Shown here piece by piece: positions 9,736-48,321 of a stretch of 64,000 nt of DNA. Position 1 is the first letter of the stretch. Every line of letters begins with the position of its first letter. The DNA comes from Cetorhinus maximus (taxonomy: Eukaryota), in contig NC_135898.1 of the NCBI RefSeq assembly GCF_964194155.1, forward strand, positions 60,760,001 through 60,824,000. Reading direction: 5' to 3'. Under the pieces are notes generated by a model, which had not been told where the DNA came from, made no database searches, and was given only the letters and a program-made list of their open reading frames with translations. The position numbers and the translations under genes are program-made.

Positions 9736-10979
9736 ATGGACCCTTGTGATCTGGTGGTCTGCTTCATGCCTTACAGGGAGGAGAGAAGGAGAAAAGTGCA
9801 CCAGAAGCACCTGGCTCGTCAATGGGAGGAGCGCCTCCCTCAAGAGGAAGGTGCAGCTGGGCTTCCTGTGCACACAGCGGAAGATCCACAGTGAACCGTT
9901 ACTCGTAGGTTCCTCGCTAGACCTAGGGTCTATAGATGGTGCTTGTCATTCCTGCAGATGACTGAGAACCAGTGTCATTGAAGATTGTGCATGTCTAGGG
10001 AACTGGTTGGTCACGAATGCCACCTGCTACAGGGTTTGGTGCCGGGGGACATGGAGGGCATCCACTGCCAGTGGCTGTGAAAGTAACTGCGGCACTCAAT
10101 TTTTACGCCAGTGGCTTCTTCCAGACTCCACAGGTAACCTGTGCGGGATCTCACAAGCCTCCACTCATAATTGCATCCAGGAGGTCATAGACGCCATCTT
10201 CGCGATGACACGCAACTTTGTGCATTTTGACTGGGATCAGACGAGCCTGGATGCAAAAGCGCTGGGATTTGCACTGATCTCTGGTCTTCCCCAGGTGCAG
10301 GGGGCCATTGACTATAGTCAGGTGGCATTTAGATCTCCGTGGCAACAAGCAGTCAACCGCATCAACCACAAGGGCTTCCACATGTTGAATGTTCAGCTGG
10401 TCTGCGACCACCACAAATGCATCCTACACATCTGCGCATGATTCCCTGGGAGCATCCATGACTCCTCCATCCTTAGCAGGTCTCAGATCGATGACATCTT
10501 CCAGGGTCCACAGAGGGAGCAGGGATGGCTCCTCGGAGATGAGGACTGTCCACAGAAGGCTTGGCTGATGACACCCGTACAGTGACCTCATACTGCAGCA
10601 GAGTGACGGTTCAACGAGACTCATGTTGCAACCTCGACTTGGGTGGAGCAAACAATAGGCATATTGAAAATGAGGTTCCGATGCTTCGATAGGTCCGGCA
10701 GAGCACTATAATACAGTCCTCAGAGTGTGTCGTGCATCATCGTAGCTTGCTGTGCGCTACATAACCTGGATCAGCAACAGTGGGAGGACATGGCTGAGGA
10801 GGAGATGGAAGAGCTGTACATCTCCTCCGATAAGGAGGACATCAAAGTGGATGAGGGTGATGAGGTCCTCGGAGGCGGGGATGCTGGTGATGAGGCCATC
10901 GCACTGGCCAGAGATGGCAGGCACGCTCATGAGGCCCTCAGCTGCAAGATTCATGGAGGATGATGACAAGATACAGTGA
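9736..10979 (+). pseudogene. Harbinger (HARBI1-like, DDE_Tnp_4) transposase pseudogene
   Basis: Motifs across frames: KVTAALNFYASG, GNLCGISQAS, QGAIDYSQV, HKGFHMLNVQLVCD, PGSIHDSSIL, WLLGDED, VEQTIGILKMRF, CCALHN, acidic C-terminus. Frameshifts and stops present. Confidence 0.9.
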
Positions 10980-11689
10980 GGACAGTCTTGACATTCTTAC
11001 CTTGCATCTGTAAACGTTTGACTCCTCTGTAGCTGATGGCAGTGCACTCAATGCTCAGACTCGTGTCATGGAGATGCAGCAGAGGCCTTAATAGTCACAA
11101 TATTCCAGGAGGATGATGATGACATGCAGTGAGTACACTCCATATACCTTTAGATAGCCTCTGTGAATGTCTGACTCCTGTCTGGCTGAGGGCAGCTCAC
11201 ATGTGCTCTGTGATCAGGGTCATATCATGGAGACGCAGCCGTGAAACTTTAGATGCACCTGATCCTTTAGCAACCTTCAGCACCTGACCCCTTCAGGAGA
11301 ACCGTGTCACTAGTCACAGATGCTGAAGAGATGGGGGCCAGCCCCACCTTAAAGGTGCAGAGAGCACACAGAGAGAATGACGGAACTCTGTGATGTCTGC
11401 CCACAACATTCTGGCAGCAATAGCAAGCACCATCGAGGTGCAGGCATCACTAATGTGTCCAGTGAGTGTTAAGCTGGACCATCACTTTGCTCTGAAGGTT
11501 ACACACTGCACAAGTAAGAGGTCCTGGACTGAGACAATTGCAGGGGCCAAGGTTTCACATCTGACTGACACGAACACTGCTCATCATATCAAGGAGCCAT
11601 AGGCAGGGAGACATTCTTTGGAGTTTATTTACAATAGTGAACATTATCTACAAATGATTAATACCTGTGCCCACACAGTGCACCTACAT

Positions 11690-12262
11690 CTTCTTAACCT
11701 TCCTAACCCTGCTGCTGTGTCTTGGTGTTCCCCTGACTTCCACAGCTGAGGTGGAGGCAGCCTGCTGACTGCTACGCCCTGTTGTCAGTGATGACTTTGG
11801 CGGGTGTCCACTGGTGGGCTGAGACCTGGAGGGCCCCAGCCTGCTTCAGGTATCCTGGGGTGGACCAGATATTTCCTTCTCAGCCTGTGGAGCTGGAGCT
11901 GGAGCTGAGGGGGTCACAGCAAGAGAGTATTTGGATCAGCTGGATATTCCCGGAGATACGTGGGTGGATTGTCCTGGGGTGTCAAGCTGCTGATCTTTCT
12001 CCCTATGGGTGCCCGATGGCCCCTGGCTGACTCCTTGAGGATAATGGGAAGACGGAGTGAGATTGAGCAACCCCTCTCAAGTTGACACTGTTGGAGGCCA
12101 ACTATGGTGTCAGCGATGGATTTCAGCCCATGTAGCAGTGCAGTTTTGATGTCCGGGACCAAGGTCTCCATGGTGGACGCACCATGCTGCCAGTGTTGAC
12201 ATCGGTAAGTCAGCCTGCCGGCGCTATCACCTCAGACTGAAGGCAAGTGGACTCCTCCACCA
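11690..12262 (-). pseudogene. Last-exon remnant of the family B Myb/SANT-like gene
   Basis: METLVPDIKTALLHGLKSIADTIVGLQQC is paralogous to …LLSGLNSIADIIVCLQKC at 30206-30466; the 3' part matches 38770-38990. Confidence 0.7.
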
Positions 12263-13165
12263 TCAGAGACACAGTATAAAAGAGCGCGAGGAGAGCGAAG
12301 ACACAGGATAAAGGAGCACGAGGAGAGCGGCAAAGACACAGGTTAAAAAGAGCGTGAAAAGAGCGGCGGAGACAGGATAAAAGGGGGCGAGGAGAGTGGA
12401 GGCACAGGATAAAAGAGCACGAGGAGAGCAGAGATGCAGGATAAAAGAGTGCAAAGAGAGCGGCGGAGACACAGGATAAAAGAACGTGAGGAGAGCAGCA
12501 GAGACACGGGATAAAAGAGTGTGAGGAGAGCGGAGGCACTGGATAGAAGAGTGTGAGGAGAGCAGCGGAGACACAGGATAAAAGAGCGTGAGGAGAGCGG
12601 AGGCACTGGATAAAAGAGCGTGAGGAGAGCAGCGGAGACACAGGATAAAAGAGCATGAGGAGAGCGGAGGCACTGGATAAAAGAGTGTGAGGAGAGCAGC
12701 AGAGACACAGGATAAAAGGGCGCGAGGAGAGTGGAGGCACAGGATAAAAGAGCGCGAGGAGAAGGGAGAGACAGGATAAAGGAGCACGAGGAGAGTGGTG
12801 GAGACACAGGATAAAAGAGCACGAGGAGAGCGATGGAGACGCAGGATAAAAGAGTGTGAAGAGAGCAGAGACACAGGATAAAAGAGCTCAAGGAGAGCGG
12901 CGGAGACACAGGATAAAAGAGCGTGAAGAGAGCGGAAACACAGGATAAAATAGCGCATGGAGAGCAACGGAGACGCAGGATAAAAGCGTGAAGAGAGCAG
13001 AGACACAGGATAAAAGAGTGTGAGGGAAGCAGTGGAGACACAGGATAAAAGAGCGCAAGGAGAATGGCAGAGACACAGCATAAAGGAACATGAGGAGAGT
13101 GGAGACAAAGGATAAAAGAACACGAGGAGAGTGGAGAGACAGGATAAAAGGGCGTGGGGAGAGTG
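12263..13165 (+). repeat. Minisatellite of about 32-35-bp units (GAGACACAGGATAAAAGAGCGTGAGGAGAGCRGCG), roughly 27 copies
   Basis: Direct tandem repeats. A 32+35-bp higher-order dimer is visible near 12470-12735. Explains the L/S/C-rich minus-strand ORFs. Confidence 0.95.
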
Positions 13166-14919: not shown

Positions 14920-15317
14920 TGAGAGTAGAATGAGAGCCATACCTCTTATGTTTCAGACATTAGACCAGATGCATGAAAATTGGAAAAAGAATCAGGTATG
15001 GTGTAAACAGGGCTGTTGACTCATTATCAGCCTATTTGACATTATTGGAAATTTCACCTTCCCCATTTTGATTCTGAAAATGACATTTTAATTTATTCTC
15101 ATAGAGCTGCAGTAATTTTAAAATTTCTAGCCCGTTTTGTTTAAAGTCAAAGTATTATAACAAAATAAATTTAATAAAGCCCTATTAACAATAGTTTCAG
15201 TTCCATTTTCAACAGGGGAGGCTGCCATAAAAAATGATTGATACTCATCCAGCATAACCAAAAAAGCCATGATAGTAAACATTTTTATATGATGATGATG
15301 GGGCTGGATTTTATAGT

Positions 15318-15678
15318 AAGATAAAAGCAAAAAAACTGCGGATACTGGAAATCCAAAACAAAAATAAAAATACCTGGAAAAACTCAGCAGGTCTGACAGC
15401 ATCTGCGGAGAGGAATACAGTTAACGTTTCGAGTCCGTATGACTCTTCAACAGAACTAAGGAAAAATAGAAAAGAGGTGAAATATAAGCTGGTTTAAGGG
15501 GGGAGGGGGGGTGGGACAGGTAGAGTCCTGGTACCTGTCCCACCCCGCCTTAAACCAGCTTATATTTCACCTCTTTTCTATTTTTACTTAGTTCTGTTGA
15601 AGAGTCATACGGACTCTAAACGTTAACTGTGTTCCTCTCCGCAGATGCTGAGTTTTTCCAGGTACTTTTCTTTTTGTT
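15318..15678. mobile_element. Penelope-like element end in inverted (palindromic pLTR) configuration
   Basis: Arms about 15360-15522 and 15532-15678 are reverse complements around a 9-nt spacer. A 14-bp direct repeat CTGGATTTTATAGT flanks it (15304-15317, 15679-15692). Each arm carries a hammerhead-like motif. Confidence 0.75.
15419..15457 (-). ncRNA. Minimal type-I hammerhead-ribozyme-like motif (variant core CUGUUGA)
   Basis: Minus strand: AGUU-CUGUUGA-A-GAGUC-AUACG-GACUC-GAAA-CG-UU-AACU (helix I AGUU/AACU, helix II GAGUC/GACUC). A second copy at 15590-15628 (+) has GAAA changed to TAAA. Confidence 0.6.
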
Positions 15679-17304
15679 CTGGATTTTATAGTCCCCTGCT
15701 GAGCATGTTTTCAGTGGAGGGCACATAAAATATGTCAGGTGCTCAGCCCATCTCCTTCCTGCACACCTTGACCGGTTCTCCATAATATGGGAGGGATGGG
15801 TAAAGCCGCCCACTTTTAGGCCTATTGAAGCCTTTAACTGCCCAATTAAGTGGCAATTAAGGGCCTCAATCTGCCTCATTGCCATAAAACGCTGGGCAGT
15901 GGCAGGCGGGCGTGAGTGAGAAGGCCAATTTTGAAAGAGTTCTTTGAAAATATGGAAAGGAAAGGGGGGGTGGGGGGCTCATCCATGGGGATTGCCCTGT
16001 GCACATTGAGGACCCCCCCCCTCAAAGATGTCACACCCCCCACAACTTTGTTTCACCCCGCCTGGCCTCGGAAACCTGGCCCTCCACCCACCCTCTACCC
16101 CCTCCTTACACTCTCCGGTCCCTCCCTGCCCTAAAAGTCTGGGATTTACTTGTCTCTGGTTACCATGATCTTCATCCCCAGGGCCTCCCTGCAGTCCCAG
16201 TAGCGCCCACTACTGAGTTCTGGCACTGCTGGACCGCAGATTAGCCAGCAGCTCTCGAGGGCTTGGTTTGCTCCCACTGAGGGGCGGAAGTCTGACCCTT
16301 AAACTGATTAGCCCACCCGCAGCGTGTTATTGCTACAGGGCAGGCTTTTTAAAACTCAGTCTGCTTGGGACTGACTTTTCTTCTGTAGGGGCGAACAGTC
16401 CCACTCTCCCCCACCCCCTGTAAAATCCAGTCCATTGAATTAGATACTGAAGCCCTGGACAAATAACATAACGTAAAAAGTGATAATGTGAATCATTGCA
16501 CCAAATGATGAAGATGGTATGGAATTTATCATTATTCATAAGGGGTCTATGTATTATGTTTATTTATGCTTTTATAAAAATAATATAAAACTGTTAAACT
16601 CATGGAAAATGAACCTGTCAGGTCAATGAGAACTGCCGGGACAGAGAGATTAACAGGAAACTGCTCCTTAGCCGCCACAATTGATGACCTAGTTGTGGAA
16701 ATCAGGAACATATTTTCATGGTCCACTAATCACATTTGTGTGCAAACAATTTGATTGTTTTGTATTGAGAATGGTCAAAATCTGCAGAAAGTACCTTGGC
16801 TCACAGACATTGGTAAGTGATGTTAATGGAAAACAATGTTTTTTTTAATTCTTGAAGATATCTCAGTCTTGTGTACAAGTTTCACTCTCACTTGGACAAA
16901 TCACAGCACCATTCCTACTCAGTCAGCTCTCCATTCATATGAATTAGAATTTATATATATTTTGCTGTATGACATTTTTAAATTCCTATCAAACATGTAC
17001 AGAAAGCAGTCTTTTGAACCTGATAGACATTTTTCATATTTTATTTTAACTTTAATTTTACATATGGGCTTTCGGGCAAAGGTTAAAGGAATAAACAGGA
17101 CCACTAGTTTATAATGACTAAATGCTTGAAATTCTGTTTTTATTGCATGGGATTCTAAGACTTTAATCAGGTTTTTGTGGACACATTCTTTGGTTCTACC
17201 CATTCTTTCTGTGAAAATCACTAACCAATTGCCATGCTGAAGAACTGAGTGAAATTGATGGAAGTCATACAACTATATAATTGTATAATATTTTAGGATA
17301 TATT

Positions 17305-18616
17305 GGCCTGGATTTTTGCCAAGGCGGGAGTCCTTTAAAAATGGTGGGCGGTCCTATTTCCAGGATTTCTGACCCCATTCCCAGGCTGTACGATTTTCAG
17401 CAGTGCCTTATAAGGGTGTGAGCTAGTTCAGGTCACAAGGCTGCACCCGGCACTCTCGACCTGGCCGGATCAATTGTGGGGATAGGCATATCCTACTCCT
17501 CCTCAATTTTCATGGAGTCAGGCCAGGTTTTTCAAGAGTTGTAGTTCAGAGGAGTCGTGAACTCTAGTCTGTATGAGGGACCTTTTAAAAGGTAAGTTCA
17601 AAAGGTCTTCCTCATGGCCCCACCCACACCAATGGCCCCTCATGCCCCCTATGCCAGTCTCTGCCCTTCCACCCACCCCCTCATGGTCCCTCATGCCAAA
17701 TTATGTCCCTCAACCCACCCCCAGGGCACCTCATGCACCCTATGCCAAGCTATGACAGTTCCATGCTCTTTGGCCCACTATATAAGGTATAGAATCAATG
17801 AACCCTATTGCGATAATAGGATGTGTGAAAAAAACCTTTAAAAAGCAATCATTCATTCATTGCTTTCTACCATGTTAAAAAAAGTCCTTTCACTACATCC
17901 CAACTAAAGTGTGAATCACTCAGCCCCTAAAGTATCAATAACAGAAACTGCAAACACTTGAGACCTTGTGTAAATAAACATTGTGCAATTGACAGCAGAG
18001 ACCAGAGTGCCAGAGCTGTTAATCAATGTTTTCTCTGAGGCTCAACAGAGTAATGGGTGTCTGGATTTTCAGCCAAGAATGACTTTTTTAAAGCAAATTT
18101 TATACATCCTATTTGTCACTACAGGTTTCATTGGTTCTATACACTGTATAGTGGACCAACGGGCATATAAGTGCCAATTCTTGGCATGGGGGCTCGAGGG
18201 ACCATGAGGGGTAGGTTGGGAGCTATAGTTTTGCATAGGGGGCATGAGGGGCCATGGGTGGGGGGGGTGGGTGGGGGGCATGGCCTGATATGGGAGGCAT
18301 GAGGTGGCATTGATGGGGATAGGGAATATGTGAGGGGTGAAGGGGTGTGAGGGGTGAGGGCAGGGGAGCCTTTCTACTTTTAACTGGGATGATGTTCCAC
18401 AGTACCAAGGCGGGCCTTTTAAACAGCCCATCTCAGCACCCGGCAGCCCCTATGGCTGCCTCCAACCATTTCCCGGGTCGGCTGGCCCAACTGCAGCTGC
18501 ACCCAAACCCAACAACGAAGGTCCTGCCTTAGCAGGCAGTTTCTCCTGAGGTGGGAGGGCCGAATCGGGAATTTTCCCGACTCCCACTACCGCCTTGGTG
18601 ATGAAAATCCCAGGCC
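17305..18616. mobile_element. Non-autonomous Harbinger-type element with long internal inverted arms
   Basis: TIRs GGCCTGGATTTT / AAAATCCCAGGCC with an exact ATT TSD. 17570-17860 is an imperfect reverse complement of 18075-18425. Confidence 0.85.
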
Positions 18617-20040
18617 ATTCTAACTACTTGATGATGGCTGGTTGCTTGTTTATTAGTTCAGATATGGAAGGCTTCTAATGTTTATTAAACTATGGGATTA
18701 TTCCATGATCACTTAGAAAAGGATACAAAAGAGTTTGAAAATACTCTGTATGTTTTGAGAATGGCCTAACAAGAGCAGTGTATATTTTACAGTGGTCTGT
18801 GTGCAGTCTTTTGTGTTGACAACTGCACATTTGACAGTCGGCAGTTACGATGAACTGTTTTGTGCTACTTAATTTCTGCATGACCCCAGGGCTATGGGTG
18901 CAGTTAGCTCTTCCTGCAATTAGTATTCATGGTTACCTAAGCAGAACTAATGCAGCAAATCTCTTTCACTTTGAGTTTTGCATTTCAAGATTTGATGCCT
19001 TTAGGACAATTTGACTTTGCAGACAGGATCTTGGCATTTTCACTTTGCTTCTTCACAGGTTATAAATATTTACTTTGAAGATTAAAGCCTTAAATTAATG
19101 TTTGTGTTTAATATGGAAATCATTGTAACTTTAGAAAAGCTACAGTAGCCTATTAACAATTTAGGATTATACACACTATTTTATACCTCTTAGTAACTGA
19201 TGCTATTCCAATGGAATGTCAATATACTTCACTTTTGTCATGTACATAATAGCTTCACAAGAAAAGATTCATTTTTAATTCAAGATTTGGGATCTGAACA
19301 GCACAAATAACAGTTTAATATTTTAAAATTTTATTTATCATTTTCGGATGCCTGTTGCATGTGCAAGGAGGTAAGATTAGAATTCAGATAGTAAGCTGTT
19401 CCTCAATGGTTTAGCAAGTTTTTTCAGTGAATAACTGAAGCATTATGACCAGACTGAGATTACCTGATTTCAGCCAGTTGATTAGACAGTTGGATTGCAT
19501 TTAAGAGTCCAAAAAACACCCTAAGTAAACAAACAGACTTTGGAGCTACTATCTCAACAGATGTCTTGACTGAAAACATAAAAGCAATGGGAAAAGATTA
19601 AACATTTACACATTATTATCATACTAGGCTACTCTTTCAATAGTGTGAAATGTACCCCACCTTTTTATCCATTACCTGAACTTTTTTTTAACTCAGCTGA
19701 AGACTTTTCCATACTTACGATGATGTTTTACTTGACGGCTTGCCAGTTGGCAGAAGTAACAATCTAGCAAACACATTGGGCAGGTTTTTTCATATACCGG
19801 ACGGGCTCGGTGGGAGCGGGCGTGGAGCCGATCTCTGCCCGCGATTGGCTGCGCACCGCCATTTTATGTAGCCGGGGCAATTAAGGCCAGCCCAGCATAA
19901 ATCGCGGCTCCTGAGATCAGTGGGAAGGGGCAGGCGGTGGCGGGAGGCCAATGTCTGCCGTGTCCAGTGGTGACCCAGGGGCCTATTCAAAAATGGCGCA
20001 GGCAGCCTCCCTAAGGCTGTTACTGATTTCGGTCGGGAGC

Positions 20041-22224
20041 ATGATGGAGGGTGTCCTCGGAGAGCAGGCCAGGCGTGAAGGCAGGTTAGCAGGGCAGTCG
20101 GCACCGAGGTTCTCCGATGAGTGCCTCGCTGCCCTCCTCCAGCAGGTGGCAGCATGCCGCGAGATCCTGGTACCAAGGGATGGGAGGAGGAGGCCCCCCA
20201 CCTAACAAAATGTCCCTGGGAGGAGGTGGTAGTACAGGTCAACTCCCACGATGTGGTGAGATGCACCTGGGGGCAGCACTGCAAGCAGTTTAATGACCTC
20301 CTTTGATCGGGAAGGGTGAGTATCGTGTTGGCATGGGTCACTTAGCATAGCAGTTAGGTTGACCCCACCCGGCCACCACCACCAACTGCCACCACCCCAC
20401 TCCTCCTCCCACAACCTCAGAATTTTGTTCTTGTATTCATTCATTCGTGGAATGTGGGCTTCGCTGGCTGGGCCAACATTTATTGCCCATCCTTTGTTGT
20501 CCGTGAGAAGGTGGTGGTGAGCTGCCTTCTTGAACTGCTACAGTCCATGTGGTGTAGGTACACCCACAGTGCTGTTAGGGGGCGAGTTCCAGGATTTGGA
20601 CCCAGCGACAGTGAAGGGACGGCGAAACATTTCCAAGTCAGGGTGCTGAGTGACTTGGAAGGGACCTTTCAGTTGGTGGTGTTCCCATCTAACTGCTGCC
20701 CTTTTAGGTGGTAGTGTTCGTGGGTTTGGAAGTTCTTAGAGTGTGAGTGGAAAATGTCATGGAGGCAACATCTGGGCAAGGGGGTCAGCCCTGACTGCTT
20801 GGAATGAGTGTATGGCAGCTCCAGTGTCATGAATCGGATGAGCCCTGCAAGGTGTTCCTCAGGTGGGGTTGGCCAGGCTGCAATGGCACTGCAGGTACAG
20901 GGCGGGCTAATCAATGCTCCTCTCTCCTTTCAGGAGAAGACAGCCCACAATAACGCTGAGCGGTTGCGGACTGGCGGAGGGCAGCCCCACCTTCTCACCA
21001 TCACCAGATATGAGCAGGAGGCAGTGGAGCTGGGGAGGCGCCATGCACCCAGGTCAACTGGCTGCCATGATGTTGGGGCGCCACAGGGAGGTAAGAGTGC
21101 CGTGCAGTGGGATCACAATGTCTGTCAGTGCAAACATTCCACTATTGGCTGTGTATTGATTTCAGCATCCAACATGGGATCCCCATTGATAATCTGATCC
21201 AGGTGCCAGGCATGCACACTAACAGCGTAGCAACTCCAACTAATCAAATGTCCTTGTTCTTCCTTTCAGCCTCACCAGAGCATGCCCGGACTCGGGGGCT
21301 GAGGGACCGCTGCTGACCCCTGAGGGTACATTGACGCACCAGCGTCACACCATCTCAGCCAGGCAGGCACCAGCACAGATACCAGCACCTCGGTGGGAAT
21401 AAGATCATCGGCTAGAATCCTGGTGCACAGCAGTGAGGGCACTTCACACTCGCTTGAGGTGCAGACAGAGGCAGAGAATGCCCTGGGCGCCGGCAGTCAG
21501 AGGACTGCTGGGGACTAGGAACATGCTCAGTCAGTGGCTGATGATGTGTCTCTGGAGTTGTCCCTGAGGCAGCAGATGCTGCAAGTCCAGCAGGGTGTGT
21601 GGGAGGATCTGCCGGAGATACATGAGAGAATGCGTGCCATGGTCTCTGTGATGGAGGAGTCCATGCGGAACATTAGCAATGCAATGACCCTCATGGCCGA
21701 GCGCAATGCCTCCTCAATGGAGAGTGTGGCGACTCTCATGGAGAGGCTGCTCCAGGAGAACAATCAGGGCTTCCTAGGAATGCGCTCGGACCTGCAAGCC
21801 CTCACAGCGGCAATGACCTCAGGTGGTCACTGTCAGTGTGGGAGATGGATTGGGCATCCCAGCTAGGTGCCCATCCATCAATGGTGAGCAGGGAGATCCA
21901 AAGCGACATCACATTGGCACACGAGCTGCCTGTTGTCTCTGTGGGCTCCTCTCAGGCCACTCCAGATGGCAGCAGCAGCTCCTCCACCCCTCTGCCAGTG
22001 ACCGTGGCATCTGATGAGGCTGCAGCGACTGGGGAGATACCAGCCGTGCCACTGGCCGCTCCTTCCCAGGTGGGGCCAGCACAGGCTCCACGGGCCAGAG
22101 GATGCCCGCCAAAGTCATCAAGGCCAACAGGTCAGCAGAGTGAGCAGGCTGTCTCCAATGCCGGTGCCAGCGAGGGGGGAGCACCTAGACATAGCACCGC
22201 AAGCGTAAACGTAAAGCACCTTAG
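20041..22224 (+). pseudogene. Harbinger Myb/SANT-like DNA-binding gene, 3 exons (20041-20315, 20934-21090, 21270-22224)
   Basis: Myb/SANT-like segment APRFSDECLAALLQQV…WEEVVVQVNSHDVVRCTWGQHCKQFNDLL. Exon 2 EKTAHNNAERLRTGGGQP. Canonical GT-AG sites (GTGAGT 20316, TTTCAG 20933, GTAAGA 21091, TTTCAG 21269). Basic RKRKRKAP* end. Frameshifts present. Confidence 0.85.
20430..20732 (-). mobile_element. LINE 3' fragment inserted in intron 1 of the Myb gene
   Basis: Reverse complement of the LINE 3' end; same family as 4067-4341. Confidence 0.88.
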
Positions 22225-22547
22225 GCACAACATGGGCTTATTACTGGTGGTTTTCTTTTGCCCCATTTTTAAGTTATATTTAAGTAGGTGTGCTGTTCAA
22301 CACGTTTTAATGTACTTTGATTTCTGTATGCCAAGTTGCAAATCATTAAATGTTTTGGTTCTCAACAAGCCCCTGGGTGCTTCATTAGTTCTGCAGGTGA
22401 AGGGGAACCCATGATATTGTGAGTGACTTGTTTGTCATTGAGCTTTATTGTCAAGGCACATAGTTGCTAACCAAGCAAATGTTGCTCTCAGATATTGAGT
22501 ATTGTGCCTGCAGCCCTGGCATGTGTTGCTGGTTCACCTTTGGTAGG

Positions 22548-23663
22548 CTAGCTGAAGGAGCATTGGACCAAAGCCTCGCGGGTGTCCCTGCCTCCCAGGA
22601 GGTTGCCCAGGTCAGCGTCTATCCCCTCAGCATTCTCCAGAGCGTGCTCGCCCTTGGACTCACTATTGGACTCAGCGTGTGCTGCCAGTGCAGCTGCGTC
22701 TACATCTTCTTCCTTCACTGCATCCCCTCTTTCCAGCGCCAGATTGTGGAGAGTGCAGCATGTAACCACATGGCTCCTATTATACCACTGCTTGGCCTCT
22801 GTTCTTGGATGGCGGAGGGACGTCATGAGCCTTTTGAGGGGATAGCCCTTGTCACCCAGCAGCCATCCATCCAGCCAGGCTGGAGCACTGAAGATCCTTG
22901 GCATCTGGAAGCGTCTGAGGATGTATGCGTCATGGGAGCTGCCTGGGTACCTTGCACAGACTTCCAGAATCTGCGTCCTATTGTCACACACTATCTGCAT
23001 GTTCATGGAATGGAAGCCCTTTCTGTTGACGAAGGCACCGGGCTCACCTGCTGGCACCTTTATGGCCATGTGTGCAGTCTATGGCACTCTGGACGTGGGG
23101 GAAGCCAGCAATCGCTGCAAAACCCCTGACTCGCTCTGCCTGGCTGGCCTCATCCAAGCAGCAGTGAATGAAAGTCAATGCATGCCTGAACAGAACTTCT
23201 GTCACCAGCTTGACACAACTGTGGACAGCTGATTGGGAGACTCCACAAAGATCACCAACTGACCCCTGGAAAGAGCCGGAGGCATAGAAGTTGAGGGCCA
23301 CCATGACCTTCAGCACCACTGGAATGGGCTGTCCACCCACACAGTTGGAGCTGATCTCAGGGCTGATCATCTGACAGATGGAGGTCACTGTCTAATTTGA
23401 GAGGTGGAGCCTCCTTCAGCACTACACCTCAGACATATTGAAGTAGCTGCATTGCCGCCTGTAAACCCTGGCAGCAGAATAGTGTGTCTTCTGTGGCCCC
23501 TTCTGCCTTGGACTTCCTGTTGGCCCTGTGCCCTTTGTGCCTGCATCTGTCCTCCCACAGGTCACTCCCCCGGAGGCTGAATATGGACTCCTGGCCTCCT
23601 CCCCCTTCTGGCCCTCTCTTCATCCTCAGAGGAGGCGCTTCCAGCAGAGACCACAATCCCCAT
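22548..23663 (-). pseudogene. Harbinger DDE transposase pseudogene (family A)
   Basis: ALNFYASGSFQ, GDLCGVSQSAV, QSAIDCTH, NRKGFHSMNMQIVCD, YPGSSHDAYIL, LLGDKGYPL, CTLHNL. The segment with the catalytic Glu (between YNRSHV and VTCCTLHN) is deleted; frameshifted. Confidence 0.92.
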
Positions 23664-24977
23664 TCCCAGGGTAAGGGAAGACTGTCTGATACCGGAAAGG
23701 CCCCAAGTTTTATGATTCCTCCAGAGTCCTGAACTGAAGCCTGTTATTTCTGTCAAAGCAGCTCTGAAATGAAATGAAGTTGTCCTGATCACACAAGCAA
23801 GTAGCAGTAAGTAATAAACTAAAGTTCTAACAATTCGCATTAGCAAGCCCACTCACCCCTCTTATCCCGGCCCTGGATGAGGTTTTTAAAAATGTGGCCT
23901 ACCCGCCTGCCCCTTGTGCCCGTGCGACACCCTGAAAATCCCACGGGCTGTGAAAAATTATATTCAATTGCTGCCTCAAGGGCCTTAACAGGCCCGTTAA
24001 TTAGTGGCGGGGGCGCCTTGGAACTCATAGCACCCGCCTTCCGAAATATCGCGTTATTTTACCCATCGGCGTGTCAGACCCGCCCCCGCACGCCAACTGA
24101 AAAATTCTGCCCATTTTTTTCAAGTAGTTAAATCTTCCAATCACAGCACTGCCATGACTCACCATAATCAACACAGATACAACTCATGCTACAGTATTTC
24201 ATGATAAACTGTAAAGGAGGCAAAACCATTTTAGTTACCTTTTAAACTCTTCCTGCCTCTAATCCAATTAACCCCATATCTACAGGTTAAGGAGGGGACA
24301 ATAGGACAGGGTTCCTCCTTATTATAAACCAGTGACTGCTACTGTAGATGTGCATATGTGTGTGGACAATGGGTGAGAACAGTATTGGATTTGTTTGTGA
24401 TTTTTTGCCCCACTGCACCAAAGTCAAATGGCCTGTTGACTTTCACTGTCAGGGCTCAAACATGGAAGATCACTTGGGCTAGATTCAGGACAGCAGCAAG
24501 GGACTCATTTTATCCCAGCAAAGTGTAAATGTGTTCAGAAAAGGTGAGGAGGGTTGAAAAATTGATGAGGAAAATAAAACTATTTAGACAAAAGAGTAAT
24601 GTGTCACTGAAATCTTTCCAGTTCAAAATGCATAATCATAAAGAAACTTTCAGGAAAAGAAACTGTTCTCTAGATAACATCAGGAATGGAAATCCTGGCT
24701 GATTTTCCTCCTACCCATTTCAGTTAAAAGTTAATTGTACCAACAGCAATGAGATTGAGAAATTCATGTCAGGGATTGCACTTTGTCCCTTCCTGGGTTA
24801 GATGACTTAGTATTCATCATGTCTTTCATTTGCACAAACTTATCATTGCTGGCATCCTCAATGACTGAGATAGGGGTCAAGATTTTTAAGTGGGAGGTGG
24901 AAATCAAGAGAAAGGACTAATCACATGTCCCATTCCCACCTTCTTCTCCATTGGGGGAATGGGATTTTCCAGGAGTG

Positions 24978-27900
24978 CCAAGTTCGAATCTCACCACAGT
25001 AGATGGTGGAGTTTGAATTCAATAAAAATCTGGAATTAAAAGTCTAATGATGACCATGAAACCACTGTCGATTGCTGGAAATTCCCATCTGTTTCACTAA
25101 TGTCCTTTAGGAAAGGAAATCTGCCATCCTTACCTGCTCTGGCCTACATGTGACTTTAGACCCACAGCAATGTGGTTGACTCTTAAATGCCCTCTGAAAT
25201 GGCCTAGGAAACCATTCAGTTGTATCAAACTGTTAAAGAAAAGTCAAAAAGGGATGAAACCGGATGGACCACCCAGCATCAACCTAGGCACTGGAAATGA
25301 CAATGGCAAACTCAGTCCTATCAACCCTGCAAAGTTCTCCTTACTAACATCTGGGGGCTTGTGCCAAAATTGGGAGAGCTGTCTCACAAACTAGTCAAGC
25401 AACAGCTGGACATAGTCATACTCACAGAATCGTACCTTACGGACAATGTCCTAGACACCACCATCACCTTCCCTGGGTATGCCCTGTCTCACTGACAGGA
25501 CAGACCCAGCAGAGGTGGCAGCACAGTGGTATACAGTGGGGAGGGAGTTGCCCTGGAAGTCCTCAACTTTTACTCTGGACCCTAAGAAGTCTCATGGCAT
25601 CAGGTCAAACACGGGAAAGGAAACCTCCTGCTTATTACCATGTACCATCCCCCCTCAGCTGATGAATCAGTGCTCCTCCATATTGAACACTACTTGGAGG
25701 AAGCACTTAGGGTGGCAAAGGCGCAGAATGTACTCTGGATGGGGGATTTCAATGTCCATCACCAAGAGTGGCTCAGTAGCACCACCACAGACTGAGCTGG
25801 CCGAGTCCTAAAGGACATATTTGCTAGACTGGGTCTGCAGCAGGTGGTGAGGGAACCAACAAGAGGGCAGAACATACTTGACCTCATCCATACCAATCTG
25901 CCTGCTGCAGATGCATCTGTCATGACAGTATTGGTAGGAGTGACCACCACCCAGTCGCTGGGGAGACGAAGACCTGCCTTCACATTGAGGATACCCTCCA
26001 TCATGTTGTGTGGCCCTACCACCATACTAAATGGGATAGATTTTGAACAGATCTAGCAACTCAAGACTGAGCATCTATGAGGCACCGTGGGCCACCAGCA
26101 GCGGCTGAATTGCACTCAACCACAATCTGTAGCCTCATGGCCTGGCATATCCCCCACTCTACCATTACCACCAAGCCAAGGGTTCAACCCTGGTTCACTG
26201 AAGAGTTCAGGAGGCATGCCAGGAGCAGCACTCGACTTACCTAAAAATTAGGTGTCAACCTGTTGAAGATATAACACAGGACTACTTGCATGCCAGACAG
26301 CATAAGCAGCAAGTAACAGACAGAGCTTAGTGATTCCACAACCAACGGATCAGATCTAAGCTCTGCAGTCCTGCCACATTCAGTCGTGAATGGTGGTGGA
26401 CAATTAAACAACTCAATGGAGGAGGAGGCTCCACAAATATCCCCATCCTCAATGATGGGGGAGCCCAGCACATCAGTGCAAAAGATAAGGCTGAAGCATT
26501 TGCAACAATCTTCAGCCAGAACTGCCAAGTGGATGATCCATCTCAGCCTCCTCCGGAGGTCTCTAGCATCACAGATGCCAGTCTTCAGTCAATTCGATTC
26601 ATTCATCCATCCATTTTCACACCGCTTCTCCTGGTGAGGGTCACAGTGGCAGTAGGCTGAGCATGGCTGACCAGAATTCCCTTTCCTCAGCCACAGATTC
26701 CAGCTCCTCCTGGGGGATTTCCAGGTGTTCCAAGGCCAGCTGAGAGATGTAATTCCTCCAGCGTGTCCTGGGTTGGCCTGAAGCAGGTGGTGGTCATCCT
26801 TATCAGATGCCCGAACCACCTCAACTGGCTCCTCTCGATCGGAGGAGCAATGACCCTACACTGAGGCTTTCCCAAATTGCTGAACTCCTCACCCTGTCCC
26901 GGCGAGTATGCCCAGCAACCCTGCGGAGAAACCTCATTTCCGCCGTTTGTACCCGCAATCTTCTCCTTTCGGTCATTGCCCACAGTTCATGACCATAGGT
27001 GAGGATGGGGACCTAGATCGACCGGAGAACCGACAGCTTCATCCTAAAACTCAGCTCCCACTTCACCACCACGGACTGGTAGAGCACTCACAGAACTACA
27101 GCTGCCGTACTGATCTGCTGGTCAATCTCACCCTCCCACTGCCATCACTCACAAACAAGATCCTGAGATACTTAAACTCCTCTATTAAGGGAAGCTGCTC
27201 CCCCTCACCTGGAGAGAGCAACCCACTCTTTTCTAGGAGAGAACCAAGACCTCAGATGTGGAGGTGCTGATCCACATCCCAGCCGTGTCACACTCAGCAG
27301 TGAAATTTTCAAGTGCGCGCTGGAGATCACAGTTGGAGGAGACAAGAAGCGCAACATCATCTGCAATTAGCAGAGATGCCACCCTCAAGCCCCCAAACTG
27401 GATACTCTCCATACCTCGGCTGTGCCTTGACATCCTGTCCATGAAAATCATGAACAGGAGGCAAGACGCACCCTTGGCAGAGTCCAACGCCCACCTTGAA
27501 CGAATGTGACTTAATGCGAAAATGCAGACACAACTCTCGCTCCGCAACTAGAGGGGCCTGATAGCACGCACAAGCGGCACCAGCACCTTATATTCCTGCA
27601 GCACCTCCCACAAAATATCCTGAGGAACACGGCTGTATGCCTTCTCCAGGTCTACAAAACAGAGGTAGACCGGATTAGCAAATTCCCACGAACCCTCAAA
27701 TAGCCATGAGAAGGCAAAGAGCTGGTCGACTGTTCCACAGACAGGGCAGATTCCGCATTGTTCCTCCTGAATCTGAGGTTCGACGAACAGACATAACTCC
27801 AGCACTCTGACATAGGCTTTCCCGGGGAGGCTGAAGGGTGTGATTCCTCTATAATTGGAACACACCCTCTGGTCCCCTTTCTTAAAGATGGGGAACCGCC

Positions 27901-29682
27901 ACCCCAGTTTGCCAATCCAGTGGTACTATCCCCACCTTTCACGAAACATTGAAGAGGCGTGTTAACCATGACACTCCAACATTGTCCAGCGCCTTCAACA
28001 TCTCTGGACGAATCTTGTCCACCCCTGCTGCCTTATCGCTACAGAGGCCCTTGACCAGCGACCACAGCAAAAGTAATAGATCCGATCTCACTGGAGGGTT
28101 CTGGTTCACTCCACATGATATCAAGAAATAGCTGAAGGCACTGGATACTGCAAAGGCTATAGGCCCTGACAATATTCCAGCAATAGTACTAAAGGCTTGT
28201 GCTCCATAACTTGCCGCACCCTAGCCAAACTGTTCCAGTACAGCTACAACACTGGCATCTACCCGACAATGTGGAAAATTTCCCAGGTATGTCCCGTACA
28301 CATAAAGCAGGACAAATCTGGTGATTACCGCCCCATCAGTCTACTCTTGATCAGTGATGGAAGGGGTCATCAACAGTGCTATCAAGCGGCATTTGCTTAG
28401 CAATAACCTGTTCATTGACACTCAGTTTGGGTTCTGCCAGGGCCACTCAACTCCTGACCTCATTACAGCCTTGGTTCAAACATGGACAAAAGAGCTGAAC
28501 TCAAAAAGTGAGGTGAGACTGACTGCCCTTGACATCAAGGCAGCATCTAACCACGTGTGACATCAAGGAGCCCTAGCAAAACTGGAGTCAATGGAAATCA
28601 GGGGGAAAACTCTCCGCTGGTTGGAGTCATACCTAACACAAAGGAAGATGTTTGTCATTGTTGGAGGTCAATCATCTCAATTCCAGGACATCGGTGCAGG
28701 AGTTCTTCAGGGTAGTGTGCTCAGTCCAACCATCTTCAGCTGCTTCATGAATGGCCTTCCTTCCATAAGGTCAGAAGTGGGGATGTTTGCTGATGATTGC
28801 ACAATGTTCAGCACCATTTGCGACTCCTCAGATACTGAAGCAGTCCATGTCCAAAGGCAGCAAGACCTGGACAATATCCAAGCTTGGGCTGACAAGTAGC
28901 AAGCAACATTTGCACCACACAAGTGCCAGGCAATGATCATCTCCAAGAAGAGAGAAGCTAACCATTGCCGCTTGACATTGAATGGCATTACCATCAATGA
29001 ATTCTCCACTATCAACATCCTGGGGATTACCATTGACCAGAAATTGAACTGGACTAGCCATATAAATACTGTGGCTACAAGAGTAGGTCAGGGGCTAGGA
29101 ATCCTATAGCAAGCAACTCACCTCCTGACTCCCCAAAGTCCGACCGTCATCTACAAGGCACAAGTCAGGAGTGCGATGGAATACACTCCACTTGCCTGGA
29201 TGAGTGCAGCTCCAACAACACTCAAGAATCTTGACACCATCCAGCACAAGTCAGCATGCTTGATTGGCACCCCAGCCACAAATATTCATTCCTTCTACCA
29301 CAGACAAACAGTGGCAGCAGTGTGTGCCATCTACACGATGCACTGCAGGAACTCACCAAGGCTCCTTAGACTGCACCTTCCAAACCCACAGCCACCACCA
29401 TCTAGAAGGACAAGGGCAACAGACACATGTGAACACCATCACCTGGAAGTACCCCTCCGAGCCACTTTCTTGGAAATATATCGCTGTTCCTTCACTGTCA
29501 CTGGGTCAAAATCCAGGAACTCCCTGCCTAACAGCACTGTGGGTGTACCTACACCACATGGACTGCAGCGGTTCAAGAAAGTAGCTCACCACCACCATCT
29601 TCTCAAGGGCAATTAGGGATGGGCAATAAATGCTTGCCTAGCTAGCGATGTCCACATCCCGTAAATGAATAACAAAAAAAAG
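24978..29682 (+). mobile_element. Near-full-length single-ORF CR1-group LINE (APE endonuclease + RT), decayed
   Basis: APE motifs NIWGL, DIVILTES, GDFN, LDLI, SDH. RT motifs YRPISLL, QFGF, DIKAA, QGSVLSP, FADD. Ends AATAAA…poly(A). Starts at a B-box (GTTCGAATC). Split by an RTE at 26602-28104. Confidence 0.92.
26602..28104 (-). mobile_element. 5'-truncated RTE-clade LINE, Rex3/Expander-like, nested in the CR1-group LINE
   Basis: KAAGVDKIRPEMLKALD, CSNYRGIT..SLPGKAY, IQEEQCG, WEFANPVYLCFVDLEKAY, LLIADD, IERSQLRWFGHL. 3' tail (GATG)n-like (ttcatccatccat on +). TTCA on both sides. Confidence 0.88.
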
Positions 29683-30230
29683 AAAGCAGCCTGTAGAAGG
29701 GCTTGTTGCTGGAGGTGGGCTCAGTCCAGATTGGGCAAGTTAAAAGGCCCGTCTCCACTTCCAAAAAACTTCAACCTCGTGCTTCTGATCAGCTGGTCAT
29801 CTATATAGAGTTAAACCTTCTAACCACTTTGAACCACAATTCACTCTAACCACTCACCCCTTCACCCCCAACCCCTCTCCTCACCCTCTCACCCACACCC
29901 CCTCAATGCCTCACAGTCCTAAGCCATTATCCACTTTATGAACAGAATTCACAAGCCATATTATAATAGTTGGGAGCCACTGAATAGCCCAGAAAACTGC
30001 CTGAGGAAACAAACAGACTTTTCAAACCAGTTCTATAAATAGAGTCAAGTACTTGTAAAATGATTAGGCAATTTGATTGTAGTCAAGAGCCCATAAAGCT
30101 GTCCAAGTAAACAAACAGACTTCAGAACTGCTACCTCAACAGATGTCTAGGCTGAGTGCATAAAAGCAATGGGGAAAGATTAAACATTCACTTAATATTA
30201 TCACACTAGTCTATTCTTTCAATAGTGTGA

Positions 30231-31896
30231 GAAGGGGAAGCTGGAGTGAGATCAAGTTGCCCCGCACCCCTCTCGCGTACACACTTTTGGAGGCAAACTA
30301 TGATGTCAGCGATGGAGTTCAGTCCACTCAGCAGTGCAGGACCGGTGTCCTTGAACAAGGTCCCAATGGTGGCCGCCATCCTACCAGTGTTGATCTCAGT
30401 GTGTTGGCATGCCGGCACTATCATTTCAGACTGAAGGCAGTTGGACACCTCCGTTGTGCCTTGCAATCTGAGGAGTGCAGCAGGTATCCCTTCCTGATGT
30501 TTCTAAGCTTGCCTTTGCAGCTCCAGCAATTGAGGTATGACCAAGTCCAGAGGCTCCCCATCTGACCCAGACTCAGCAGTTTTCTGGCCTCCAGCAGTCC
30601 TCCAAATGCCGGAAACCTGGGAAGTCCCCACCATCACCTGCTGTGGATCAGACAGTGCAATGTGCTCACCAGATTGTGACCCCAAGGCTACTCTAAATCT
30701 AGGTCCCACTGAGGTATGTGCCTCTGCACTGGTGGATGGTGTGGGTTAGTGCTGTGACAGATTTTCAAAGAGGGTCTAATCAGATTCTTCTTCTGAGGTT
30801 TCTTCAGAGCTTGAGTTGAGGACGTGGATGATGGACCTCCTCAGCTGTTTCCCAGATGTGCCTGCGAATGCAAGGAGAGATAACTAATGCATGGCAGGGG
30901 ATTGTGGAACAGTGGAAGTGACTCAAAGCATGGCTGTCTGATGGATGTTGTACTGCTGTATCCTCACTTCATAGAGTACCACTGACCTCACTTTCTGCAC
31001 AGGAATGGTCCAGATTATTGCTGGACAGCTGGATGACTCTATTTTCAAAGTCCATGAGGACCATGAGTTCAGGCATCCCTCCACCAGTCTGTGACTGCTC
31101 CCTTTTGCCAGCTTATCCTGCATGAATACTGATGGAGAGGATGCAGGATGCCTGTAGGGCCAGGTGATAAGGATGCCTGGCATGTGTGGGTGGTGAGTGG
31201 TGCCATGGACAGGATGAGGACATGATCCAAAGGGAAAATGAAGGTGTGTGTGAGAGTGAATGGTGATGTCCCTTAAACTGGCAGTGAATGAGATTCCTGT
31301 GGATGTGTAATGGGTTTGTGATTGTGTGGGTTGAGAGGTATGGGAAGCTGGAGTTGCAGTTATGAGAAGAGTGACTTACCCTGGCGGAATGGAGGAGATC
31401 ATTCACCCTCTTTTGGTGCTGGGTGGCTGTCCTCTTTTGCAGGGCGTTGGTGCTGACCACTGCTGCCACTGCCTTGCATGCAGGATTGGTGACCTTTCTT
31501 GCTGGCCTTCGCACAGAGCGGGGGTAGAGATTATTGCGCCAGGCCTCCACTGTGTCTAAGTAGGTGCTAAAGAGAGGCATCGCTAAATCTGGGGGCAGCA
31601 TGTTTCCTCTCTTTGGTAGCCATCAGTTCCCAGCAGCTCCCTATTCCTTGAAGAATGCTAGCTCTTTGCAGTGGTGGCCTTTAAATCTGGTGCCCAGTTT
31701 ACTGAATGCCTGAGGAGATGGCGGGGTGGGCGAATCAGAGGATGTCCCGCCAGGCTGGTGTATTTCTCAGGAATGCATAATGAATGAGGTGGGAATGGGA
31801 TGATACGGCGTGAAAACCCGCCATTGCAGCCAGCGGGTAAAATGCCCTTTTTCCCGCCGCTACCGCATTTCGTGCAAATTTGGGGTGATTCTGCCC
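30231..31896 (-). mobile_element. Harbinger family B, Myb-side half (left part deleted) with Myb/SANT-like pseudogene on the minus strand
   Basis: Colinear with 39010-40332. LYPRSVRRPARKVTNPACKAVAAVVSTNALQKRTATQHQKRVNDLL and QDKLAKGS. Ends …GATTCTGCCC followed by ATT. Confidence 0.87.
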
Positions 31897-31971
31897 ATTG
31901 TTTAAGGGGTAATTATGTCTTCCAATCACAGCATTGCCAGAATTCACCAAAACAAACACAGATACAACTCA

Positions 31972-32068
31972 AAAAATAAAAAAATACCTGGAAAAACTCA
32001 GCAGGTCTGGCAGCATCGGCGGAGAAGAGTACAGTTGACGTTTCGAGTCCTCATGACCCTTCAACAGA
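31972..32068 (-). mobile_element. ~100-bp Penelope-like end carrying a hammerhead-like motif
   Basis: Similar to 15360-15456. 8-bp TSD ACAACTCA (31964-31971, 32069-32076); the empty site is seen in the paralog near 24178. Motif GUU-CUGUUGA-A-GGGUC-AUGAG-GACUC-GAAA-CG-UC-AAC. Confidence 0.75.
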
Positions 32069-33456
32069 ACAACTCATGCCAAAGTATTTCATTATCAACT
32101 TTAAAGGCGGCAAAATCATTTTAATTACCCGTTAAAGTGTTCCCACCTCCAATCCATGGTTCATGCCTCCGAGCAGCTGGTGTAAAAACCTGACAGCTGC
32201 TAAAATCCAGCTGCATGAAAATAAAAAAAAACTTACCAGAGATGGACTCTCAATGAGCCTAGAATGCTGTTCTCCTTCATAAGAGCAGATGGGTTCCAGG
32301 TCCCATTCCCTCCTCTGCCCTCGTGAAAATGGCTGAGGGCGAAAACAGGCTGGACCTTTGGGTGCGCTGCCCAGTGGCCATTTTTTCTGGCCCTGCCTTT
32401 GTTTGGTCCTGATTGGGATCATGAAAATCTGGTCCTGGGAGCTTGATGAAATCATCTGTATCCAGTTCACAGCAATGCCTGAGTGGGAACAAAGAAACTA
32501 ACCAGAATTATTCTCATTATTTCGGACAGTTCTGAATATCAGCAGCAGTTATTTCTTGTACCAAATTATTTTTGCACATAAGGGTAAGGGTATATAAATA
32601 TTTAATGTTTATTAAATATCTATTTACTTAAATACTTAGGTATTTAAATAAATAAAATTTATTTATTTGAAGTAATGACAGCAGCCATATAAAATCTGGG
32701 GAGATCCTCAGAGATGAAAGTGTGACAGTAAAAGATATCAAAGATCTAATGGAGAAATAGTAACAGTATAAAATAAAGCAGGGGGGCAATGTACAGAACA
32801 GAGCAAGCAGTAGGTGTGGTAAAATGTGCAGTTTGACTACATGCATGGATTTAACTTAATCCATTTAAGATCAGCTCTTTTTCTAGTTTATTTGTTTTCA
32901 AGCCTTTAAATTTCAAACATAAATGAATTACAGTCACTGTAGAAAAAGTTCAATTTTTTATATGGGTGAGGGTACATGTGTAAGGCACAGTTCAGGTGGT
33001 TGAAAGGCAGATTTTATTTAGCGTTCATTTACAATGCAGATGATGCCAGCTCCTGGGCATCCTATCCAATTGCATTTATCACATTAATGAACCTACAATA
33101 TATGCATAATAAATAATGCACACAATGTTATGTAGAATTTTCTTTCAGAGAACTACATAAACCATGCTGGACTTAAATTCAGAACTGGTACATCCAGAAA
33201 AAGACAGTTTTACCAAACAGGAATGAAAATCATAGTGGCAAAAATTAAAAGAGCAGGGAGGCTATATTTGGGACTGGAATTAGACCCCTCCACTTACTCA
33301 TGTCCTCTAAAATATGGAAGGACATTACAGAACACTTGATACCATTTCATACACGAAACAGATTGGGAATGACACCCAGAAGTGGTAGAATTACCTTAAG
33401 TGGAGAATCAATTGGCTTGTGTTAAGTGTAGGTTGGCACGAACTGGAGGCACTTAC

Positions 33457-36876: not shown

Positions 36877-38060
36877 ATGGAGCTTGGTGAACTAGCTGTA
36901 TGCCCGATGGCCCACAGAGAGCGAAGACGATGGGGGAGAAAGTGATTGAGGCTCCTGGCTGTGCAGAGGCAGCAGCAGTAACCTCAAGAAGAGCAGCTGG
37001 GGCTCCTACATACGCCGCCAAAGAGCCACAGTGACCCGTCACTGGTCAGCGCTTAGCAACACCCATTCCTGCAGATGACTGAGAACCAGTATCACCGAAG
37101 ACTGTGCATGTCTAGGGAACTGGTCGTTCAATCTGCCAGCTACTGGAGAATTTGGCACATGGGGACATGGAGGGTATCCACTGCCAGTGGCCCTGAAAGT
37201 GACCGCAGCACTCAATTTCTATGCCAGTGGCTCCGTTCGGGGCTCCACAGGTGACCTCTGTGGGATCTCACAAGCCTCCACCCACAAATGCATCCATGAG
37301 GTCACGGATGCCATCTTCACGAGGGCACACTACTTTGTCCATTTCACCTGGGACCAGGACAGCCAGGATGCAAGAGCGATTGGATTTGCCCAGATCTTGG
37401 GTTTCCCACAGGTGCAGGGTGCTATCGACTGTACTCACATGGTGCTCAGATCTCTGTCGCAACACATGATGAACTACATCAACTGCAAAGGTTTCCATTC
37501 ACTGAATGTGCAGCTGGTGTGCGACCACCACAAACGCATCCTGCAGGTCTGCACATGGTTTCCAGGGAGCGTGCACGATGCTTACATCCTCAGTCAGTCA
37601 CAGATCCCTGAAGTCTTCCAGGGTCTACAGAAGCTGCAGGGATGGATCCTTGGGGACAAGGGCTACCCACTGATGACACCCGTGCGGCGGCCTCAGACTG
37701 CAGCAGAGTGATGGTATAATGAGGCTCATGCTGCAGCTTGCAACTCGTTGGAGCAGACCATCGGGATGTTGAAGGTGAAGTTCTGGTGCCTGGACCGGTC
37801 AGATGGAGCCCTGAAATATAGTCCACAGAGGGTGTCATGCATCGTCGTCATCTGCTAAGCCTTTTACAACCTGGCACTGCAACGGGTAGGCGAGCTGGCT
37901 GAGGAGATGTAGGAACTGGAGGTCTCCTCTGATGAGAAAGACGCTGATGGGGATGAGGGTGAGGAGTCCTTGGAGGCAACGATGACGGGGATGAGGCCCT
38001 CGCACTGGCTAGATGAGGCAGGCTGCTAGACTCATGGAGGATGATGATGACATGCAGTGA
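36877..38060 (+). pseudogene. Harbinger DDE transposase pseudogene (family B) with a probable 5'-UTR intron (35989-36858)
   Basis: ALNFYASGS, QGAIDCTH, CKGFHSLNVQLVCD, FPGSVHDAYIL, ILGDKGYP, LEQTIGMLK. TATA-like CATAAAAG at 35941, donor GAG|GTGAGT, acceptor CCTGCAG. Stops and frameshifts present. Confidence 0.9.
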
Positions 38061-48155: not shown

Positions 48156-48321
48156 ATAAGTAGGTCGTAGCTGTCACACATCATACACTCTCAGCAGGAC
48201 AAGCACCATGGAAGGAAACGTTAACAGCTCCAATACAGAACTATTACTGACCTAAAGTGAATGCAGATTCTTTGAAATGTAGACTTGTTTGCTGAAGAGC
48301 CATATTAATATAGAAGGTAGT

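Follow-up and report, generated by a model that had tools for sequence, protein, structure and literature searches.

Can a hammerhead ribozyme that has lost the adenine at position 6 of its core still cut, or is what remains a fold kept for some other role? The question is raised by three minimal hammerhead-like motifs in a 64,000-nt stretch of the Cetorhinus maximus genome (assembly GCF_964194155.1, contig NC_135898.1, positions 60,760,001 to 60,824,000 of the forward strand; hereafter the window), which belong to Penelope-like insertions and have U at this position (U6). In coordinates, strands, U6 core, extra A after A9, 5-bp helix II and GUU or GUC triplets the three motifs agree with the original prediction, which was made from the letters of the window and left two options, a functional variant ribozyme and a catalytically dead structure. 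The evidence presented here leans, short of proof, towards a motif that is weakened but still cut, and we put the probability at roughly 0.55 that it acts as a slow, dimer- or protein-assisted ribozyme which cuts a small share of the element RNA and is weakened but still under selection.

The motifs are the minimal hammerheads in the pseudo-long terminal repeats (pLTRs) of a very abundant autonomous Neptune-like Penelope element. A 30-nt anchor 3' of the motif occurs 96,419 times without mismatch in the 4.0-Gb genome, and an otherwise fixed motif pattern is matched exactly 28,995 times with U at position 6, 11,620 times with A and 11,018 times with C or G, against 0 for the backwards controls, so that the motif is clearly not a chance occurrence; a group with altered helix II, outside the main patterns, adds 8,718 and 530 C6 matches, and such exact-pattern searches under-count old copies. 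In the first 100 of 44,840 rows of a core-blind search, viewed by eye, position 6 was U in 71, A in 16, C in 11 and G in 2, while C3, U4, G5, G8, A9, A13, A14 and A15.1 deviated in 0-2 rows each and G12, which is part of a CpG, in 11. A small G6 group of several copies (L212-L219) was also seen, and all four bases hence occur at position 6.

The link to Penelope-like elements, which had been proposed from the motif alone, is borne out by the end of an open reading frame (ORF) coding for reverse transcriptase (RT), a linker and a GIY-YIG domain that lies 5' of many motif copies. A protein query from a U6 copy was used to score 138 of 65,393 candidates, from which the 20 longest-frame regions were taken; all 14 gap-free ORFs of 920-925 aa have a C6 motif downstream and most also one upstream, and one 897-aa frame with a 5' truncation carries U6. 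Pfam recognizes RVT_1 (E=1.9e-7) in the 925-aa ORF and GIY-YIG at E=4.5e-4, which is below the Pfam cut-off, and gave no match on two partial ORFs. The Cys-rich, zinc-finger-like linker between RT and endonuclease (EN), with CxxxxCxxC at about residues 791-799, is also present in Nematis (PMC8557442) and points to the Neptune or Nematis side of Penelope-like elements (PLEs). As in EN+ PLEs, a single ORF joins RT to a C-terminal GIY-YIG domain, pLTRs occur in tandem or partial tandem, and there are inverted 5'-truncated copies and a tail; as in minimal PLE hammerheads, the motif has a helix I, a helix II with G10.1-C11.1, an extra nucleotide after A9 and a palindromic minimal helix III. The family has C3, U4, G5, G8, A9, G12, A13, A14, A15.1, U16.1 and H17 of the hammerhead consensus, but A6 is replaced by U or C throughout the post-A6 subfamilies. 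A non-LTR retrozyme, consisting of non-coding tandem monomers with hammerheads, is ruled out since the copies are the ends of a coding element. It should also be mentioned that a tandem and inverted array on C24 (58.89-58.91 Mb; L118, L119) comprises at least three full-length elements, which belong to the youngest group and are near-identical.

The history of position 6 was traced in a tree built from the ORF end and the pLTR with the motif excluded and rooted on the single A6A7 copy, for which 233 motif copies yielded 104 that reach the ORF end and 73 with at least 310 alignable ORF bases, the remaining 160 being left out. The 73 copies form one ladder, which leads from A6U7 to U6 with an A-U pair at 10.2, further to U6 with G-U and C17, and finally to C6, and the mean divergence from the group consensus goes down from 4.2% (A6U7) to about 1.5% (C6), as measured on 62 of these copies sorted into eight groups. 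The order is thus A, U and C, and the family has amplified after the loss of A6. That A6>U characterizes the family holds true at the level of the family, but U is not the fixed end state that had been supposed, being a long middle phase between older A6 and youngest C6 copies, with the small G6 group besides. Since two U6 copies sit among A6U7 copies, polymorphism or recombination may have accompanied the switch from A6 to U6, and later on the ladder some U6 and C6 copies are also interleaved. U6 likely predates this species, because contigs from sequencing runs of three other organisms span the U6 form; no other letter is listed at position 6 in these contigs, which is subject to the bias of a likeness filter. 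The idea that the core change was driven by pairing of a downstream helix with the core strand was rejected, since the base opposite position 6 is mostly A rather than G in C6C7 copies.

The remainder of the core has been conserved since A6 was lost. Between seven post-A6 subfamily consensuses none of 14 sites in or next to the core has changed, these being C3, U4, G5, G8, A9, G12, A13, A14, both helix III pairs and G10.1-C11.1, and the 14 changes found among the consensuses are confined to N6, N7, loop II, H17 (U or C only) and stem sites at which pairing is kept. The chance that 14 changes miss those 14 of 39 sites is 0.002, and compared with the pLTR rate the absence of core changes has P=0.009. 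Four stem changes keep pairing, with one compensatory U-A>C-G through a U-G intermediate, and the pairing of helix II, noted before as kept between two insertions, is thereby supported across subfamilies, while helix III is a self-complementary 4-6-mer common to all of them. Of the checks that had been suggested, an Rfam scan of the window returned zero hammerhead matches at E<=5, and covariation is represented by the compensatory pair in helix II, formal covariation being weak. The family accordingly has neither a CUGANGA consensus nor a helix II devoid of covariation nor a motif detached from a Penelope ORF.

An indirect indication of cleavage is provided by four independent insertions, one of them in a U6-type subfamily, in which 18S or 28S ribosomal RNA (rRNA) is fused within 1 nt of the predicted cut site. 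In one of these (L249) 273 nt of sense 28S (452-725) are joined to position 1.1 with one shared U and otherwise no microhomology, the whole unit lying inside a target duplication, and in three others (C21, C24 and C7) position 1.1 directly follows 18S that ends at 1380. The 18S fusions on C21 and C7 occur in both arms, and the three copies on C24 have the same flanks and count as one event. A search anchored on 18S and blind to element position found 5 of 5 rows at 1.1 at spacings 0-30 and 0 rows at spacings 31-61. Among non-arm junctions, sampled as 50 of 60 rows and 30 of 213 rows of two junction searches, rRNA is found in 3 of 38 cut-site events versus 0 of 79 elsewhere (Fisher p=0.03, C7 excluded), and no rRNA fusion at another element position was seen in the junctions examined. 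The fused copies lack position 6 themselves; among intact copies their downstream types are accompanied by C6 in 82 of 82 cases and, for the C7 fusion, whose type is that of the third window copy, by U6 in 5 of 5. Both rRNA ends follow a pyrimidine, as is expected for cyclic-phosphate ends. Rows among the C6 cut-site starts that resembled 28S by eye proved to be inverted arms. As separate observations, one ribosomal DNA (rDNA) unit (L505, C1023:60500-70400) differs from its neighbour in that its 28S gene is broken after model position 1888, and 6 of 48 loci of U6 small nuclear RNA (snRNA) viewed were ordinary genes.

Apparent 5' starts of the copies, tallied by eye over positions 15.1 to 1.4, are modestly raised around the cut site. 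In this order there are 5, 8, 8, 20, 10, 18, 3, 6 and 13 in the C6 subfamilies (100 of 165 rows, 9 being at +1 or deletions; the first 30 rows were confirmed by script), 7, 3, 6, 6, 5, 17, 1, 13 and 15 in the C17 subfamilies (100 of 333 rows, 27 downstream or excluded) and 2, 6, 10, 12, 9, 10, 6, 7 and 7 in U6a (88 of 88 rows, 19 others), and no clear peak is seen in A6A7 copies, in which indels and CpG decay cause much noise. Head-to-head junctions symmetric about U17 were considered as a sign of cleavage and discarded, as the same form also occurs at +1 and -4. One locus (L323, C7:68.49 Mb) has three tandem 66-nt units, each reaching from 1.1 to the tail, as if RT had restarted repeatedly on a cut fragment, and at others (L284, L287, L290, L444 and similar) short duplications of bases 3' of the cut site are set before 1.1, possibly as a mark of template-end slippage.

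Starts are far commoner at the 5' edge of the motif. Of 105 copies collected via the anchor 3' of the motif, 24 have their first base within -8..+1 of C3, and most starts in the youngest group lie at -3/-4 (first 100 of 530 rows by eye); genome-wide about 15-23% of copies, and in the window the one ending at 32070, begin 3-4 nt before C3, where an initiator-like sequence doubles as the 5' strand of helix I. The RNA likely has its 5' end at this site, and the 5'-edge starts fit such an end together with RT initiation at the tail, as in the Anolis element, from which we infer that most insertions copy uncut RNA. The motif edge is more probably a start of transcription than a splice junction because no common upstream exon is seen; indeed splicing at the AG before the motif was rejected given the lack of a shared upstream exon in the 105 copies and of such a joint in four contig sets, and given the loss of the branch-like sequence in the youngest group. 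A strong 5' splice-donor-like site is found 80 nt after C3 in U6 and C6 but not in A6A7 subfamilies (L116:1495-1730), with a candidate in-frame acceptor about 230 nt further 3' and no joint in the four contig sets.

According to the explanation that we favour, the element RNA would begin 3-4 nt before C3 and reverse transcription would start at the tail, about 70-110 nt 3' of the motif; most templates would be uncut, and cleavage would be occasional and dispensable for any single jump. Cleavage would leave a 5'-OH end, to which an RtcB-like host ligase would join broken rRNA before retrotransposition, RtcB being known to join cyclic-phosphate ends to 5'-OH L1 RNA, which gives U6/L1 chimeras (PMC6789731). 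Both U6 and C6 are expected to be slow, since mutants of the CUGA turn are poor and A6C is slow: the A6C hammerhead of phage Bcep176 has a kobs <0.1 per min (PMC3088659), and natural A6C hammerheads retain low activity (PMC3088659, PMC7151607) and A6C prefers Mn2+ (PMC7151607). A weaker step of the argument is that fast cutting would part the tail from the ORF-bearing RNA, so that a slow core would be tolerated or even favoured. In its most far-reaching form, in which the hammerhead without A6 would be a tuned-down, protein- or Mn2+-gated ribozyme selected in this vertebrate retrotransposon lineage since fast cutting splits the RT start from the ORF, and the rRNA chimeras a fossil record of germ-line cleavage and ligation, the idea is possible but held by us only tentatively.

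Several points weigh against cutting by the motif itself, and many of these would equally suit a motif that has been dead since A6 was lost, its fold or sequence being kept for protein binding, as an internal promoter or for RT positioning, with the ends at 1.1 made by a pause of RT at the junction or by a host nuclease. Only 1 of the 105 core-blind copies starts near the cut site versus the 24 at the motif edge, and the excess of starts is broad and modest, three positions holding 48 of 91 in C6 and 31 of 69 in U6a and the C17 subfamilies having 17 at 1.1 next to 13 at 1.3 and 15 at 1.4; part of this hump could come from microhomology, from added T's and from RT pausing. The cut step is pyrimidine-A, which is favoured by host nucleases too, and a host nuclease, or an older A6 copy in trans, could leave the same end. 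Furthermore, the 18S site was picked from copies preselected for 1.1, and therefore only the third event and the empty search at spacings 31-61 are independent. Compared with four-fold ORF sites (8 of 52 changed) the absence of core changes is not significant (P=0.12), a block of 30 nt downstream is as frozen as the core (1 of 30 changed), so that non-catalytic constraint is evident near the motif from the consensuses, and the covariation control, made on 20 hand-picked related rows, is weak, its pairing level being reached by 23 of 500 shuffles and its two-sided count by 191 of 500. A full-length copy (L124) has G8>A in both pLTRs, so that its donor may already have had a broken core when it was copied. 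In a full double-mutant scan of a type III hammerhead, activity was low for every single mutant of the CUGA turn and was restored by no double mutant other than the C3-G8 swap (PMC9901934), in one ribozyme A6C was >10,000-fold slower in 0.3 mM Mg2+ than in Mn2+ (PMC7151607), and normal insertion in vitro was seen for catalytic mutants of the Anolis element (PMC11167929); Naiad elements spread without hammerheads (PMC8557442), and tens of thousands of amplifications followed the A6 change here. A dead motif is nonetheless unlikely in our view, as it is in poor agreement with the retention of G8, G12, the C3-G8 pair and a non-G H17, and with rRNA joined only at 1.1 despite other pyrimidine-A steps and the far commoner 5'-edge starts.

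Alternatively the U6 and C6 RNAs may be substrates only, young RNA being cut in trans by transcripts of older A6 copies via a double hammerhead whose core comes from the partner. At least 11,620 intact-looking A6 copies remain, all subfamilies share the self-complementary helix III 4-6-mer, and minimal hammerheads are thought to work as dimers (PMC4209133), but this reading is improbable, as it requires two rare RNAs to meet and would leave unexplained why the U6 or C6 master keeps its own C3-A9 and G12-A14 strands. That the variant has full activity under its native conditions, where element protein, Mn2+ or the extra A after A9 would make A6 dispensable, is suggested by the presence of all four bases at position 6 in amplified groups, by the protein assistance of the Anolis motif (PMC11167929) and by the rescue of A6C with Mn2+ (PMC7151607); however, by rough estimate cut-site starts make up about 1% of copies versus about 15-23% at the 5' edge, and a second-site rescue is not known (PMC9901934), so we regard this as very doubtful as well.

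In the window itself the three motifs represent two insertions (Table 1), those at 15419-15457 and 15590-15628 being the arms of a single head-to-head insertion, which are 95% complementary across 112 nt and flanked by a target duplication of 12-14 bp. Short copies most often begin where the stub at 31970-32070 has its 5' end. Every hammerhead core position except A6 is kept at 15419-15457 (-) and 32033-32070 (-), whereas the copy at 15590-15628 (+) also fails the consensus at G12 (U at 15617), and the GAAA box ascribed to all three motifs is consequently absent from it. An alternative register in which the core is read as U3 was dismissed, as it would break helix II and A9 in the second subfamily. 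Elsewhere the window has a purine-rich minisatellite of alternating 32- and 35-nt units at 12261-13162 and kilobase-long dispersed repeats of 75-90% identity at 25292-29685, 45255-48156, 53072-59057, 10119-11419 and 37236-39504, which are probably other retroelements.

Table 1. Parts of the two Penelope-like insertions in the window
Positions	Strand	Feature	Details
15304..15317	.	Left copy of target-site duplication	Head-to-head insertion; 12-14 bp
15318..15525	-	Left arm: pLTR with 5' truncation and Penelope-like element tail	U6a subfamily
15419..15457	-	Minimal type I hammerhead	U6 = 15450; remaining core intact; predicted cut 15423/15422
15532..15678	+	Right arm of the 15318-15678 insertion	12-nt deletion 3' of hammerhead
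15590..15628	+	Hammerhead copy	U6 = 15597; private G12>U = 15617; predicted dead
15679..15692	.	Right copy of target-site duplication	
31970..32070	-	100-nt stub insertion	U6b subfamily; 5' end 3 nt before C3
32033..32070	-	Minimal hammerhead	U6 = 32064; C17 = 32037; helix II G-U pair

Penelope elements keep hammerheads in spite of low activity in vitro, mutants that insert and the lack of cut ends in vivo for the one reconstituted element. The present lineage offers a dated natural series of A6, U6 and C6 in one sequence background together with junctions at the predicted cut site, which makes the reason for keeping them approachable with RNAs of 40-100 nt, and it should be noted that in such genomes most copies would escape searches tied to the canonical core. 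If the most far-reaching form of our explanation is true, it implies germ-line cleavage and ligation of Penelope hammerhead RNA, which we did not find shown in vivo for such elements in the accessible literature. Nor did we find there a natural precedent for the U6 phase, A6U or A6C in Penelope hammerheads, shark Penelope hammerheads or rRNA fusions at the cut site; Lunse et al. 2017 and the supplements of PMC4209133 and bioRxiv 10.64898/2026.07.22.740005 may list such core variants, and the bioRxiv work includes one chondrichthyan.

What is new is thus a core variant within a known pairing of element and ribozyme. Like the minimal type I hammerheads of metazoan Penelope-like elements (Cervera and de la Pena 2014, PMC4209133), the motifs occur in both pLTRs, have an extra nucleotide between 9 and 10.1, G10.1-C11.1, a palindromic 15.2-16.2 without loop III and a short helix I, and are found mostly in truncated singles or inverted pairs; the published descriptor however keeps A6 and only a U3-A8 swap is described in the accessible part of that paper, which does not name sharks, whereas here position 6 is U and then C throughout the lineage. 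The A6C hammerhead of phage Bcep176 (PMC3088659, PMC7151607) is likewise a natural change at position 6, with low activity and a preference for Mn2+ in the phage RNA, but it is one copy of a full hammerhead, as opposed to a minimal motif that is present here >40,000 times and has passed through a U6 phase. The Poseidon element PAc of Anolis (PMC11167929) resembles the present one in its internal RT start at the tail, priming on both strands, uncut RNA as the main template and a hammerhead near the ORF start; its motif, which cuts only with protein, has a canonical core, the element belongs to the Poseidon clade, and its authors report no reads ending at the cut site, in contrast to the genomic fusions that mark this site here. 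Finally, the U6/LINE-1 chimeras made by RtcB (PMC6789731) also have a fragment of host RNA 5' of a retroelement RNA, inserted as a unit, but their L1 junctions vary, whereas rRNA is here found at one fixed position, which is the predicted end of the ribozyme product.

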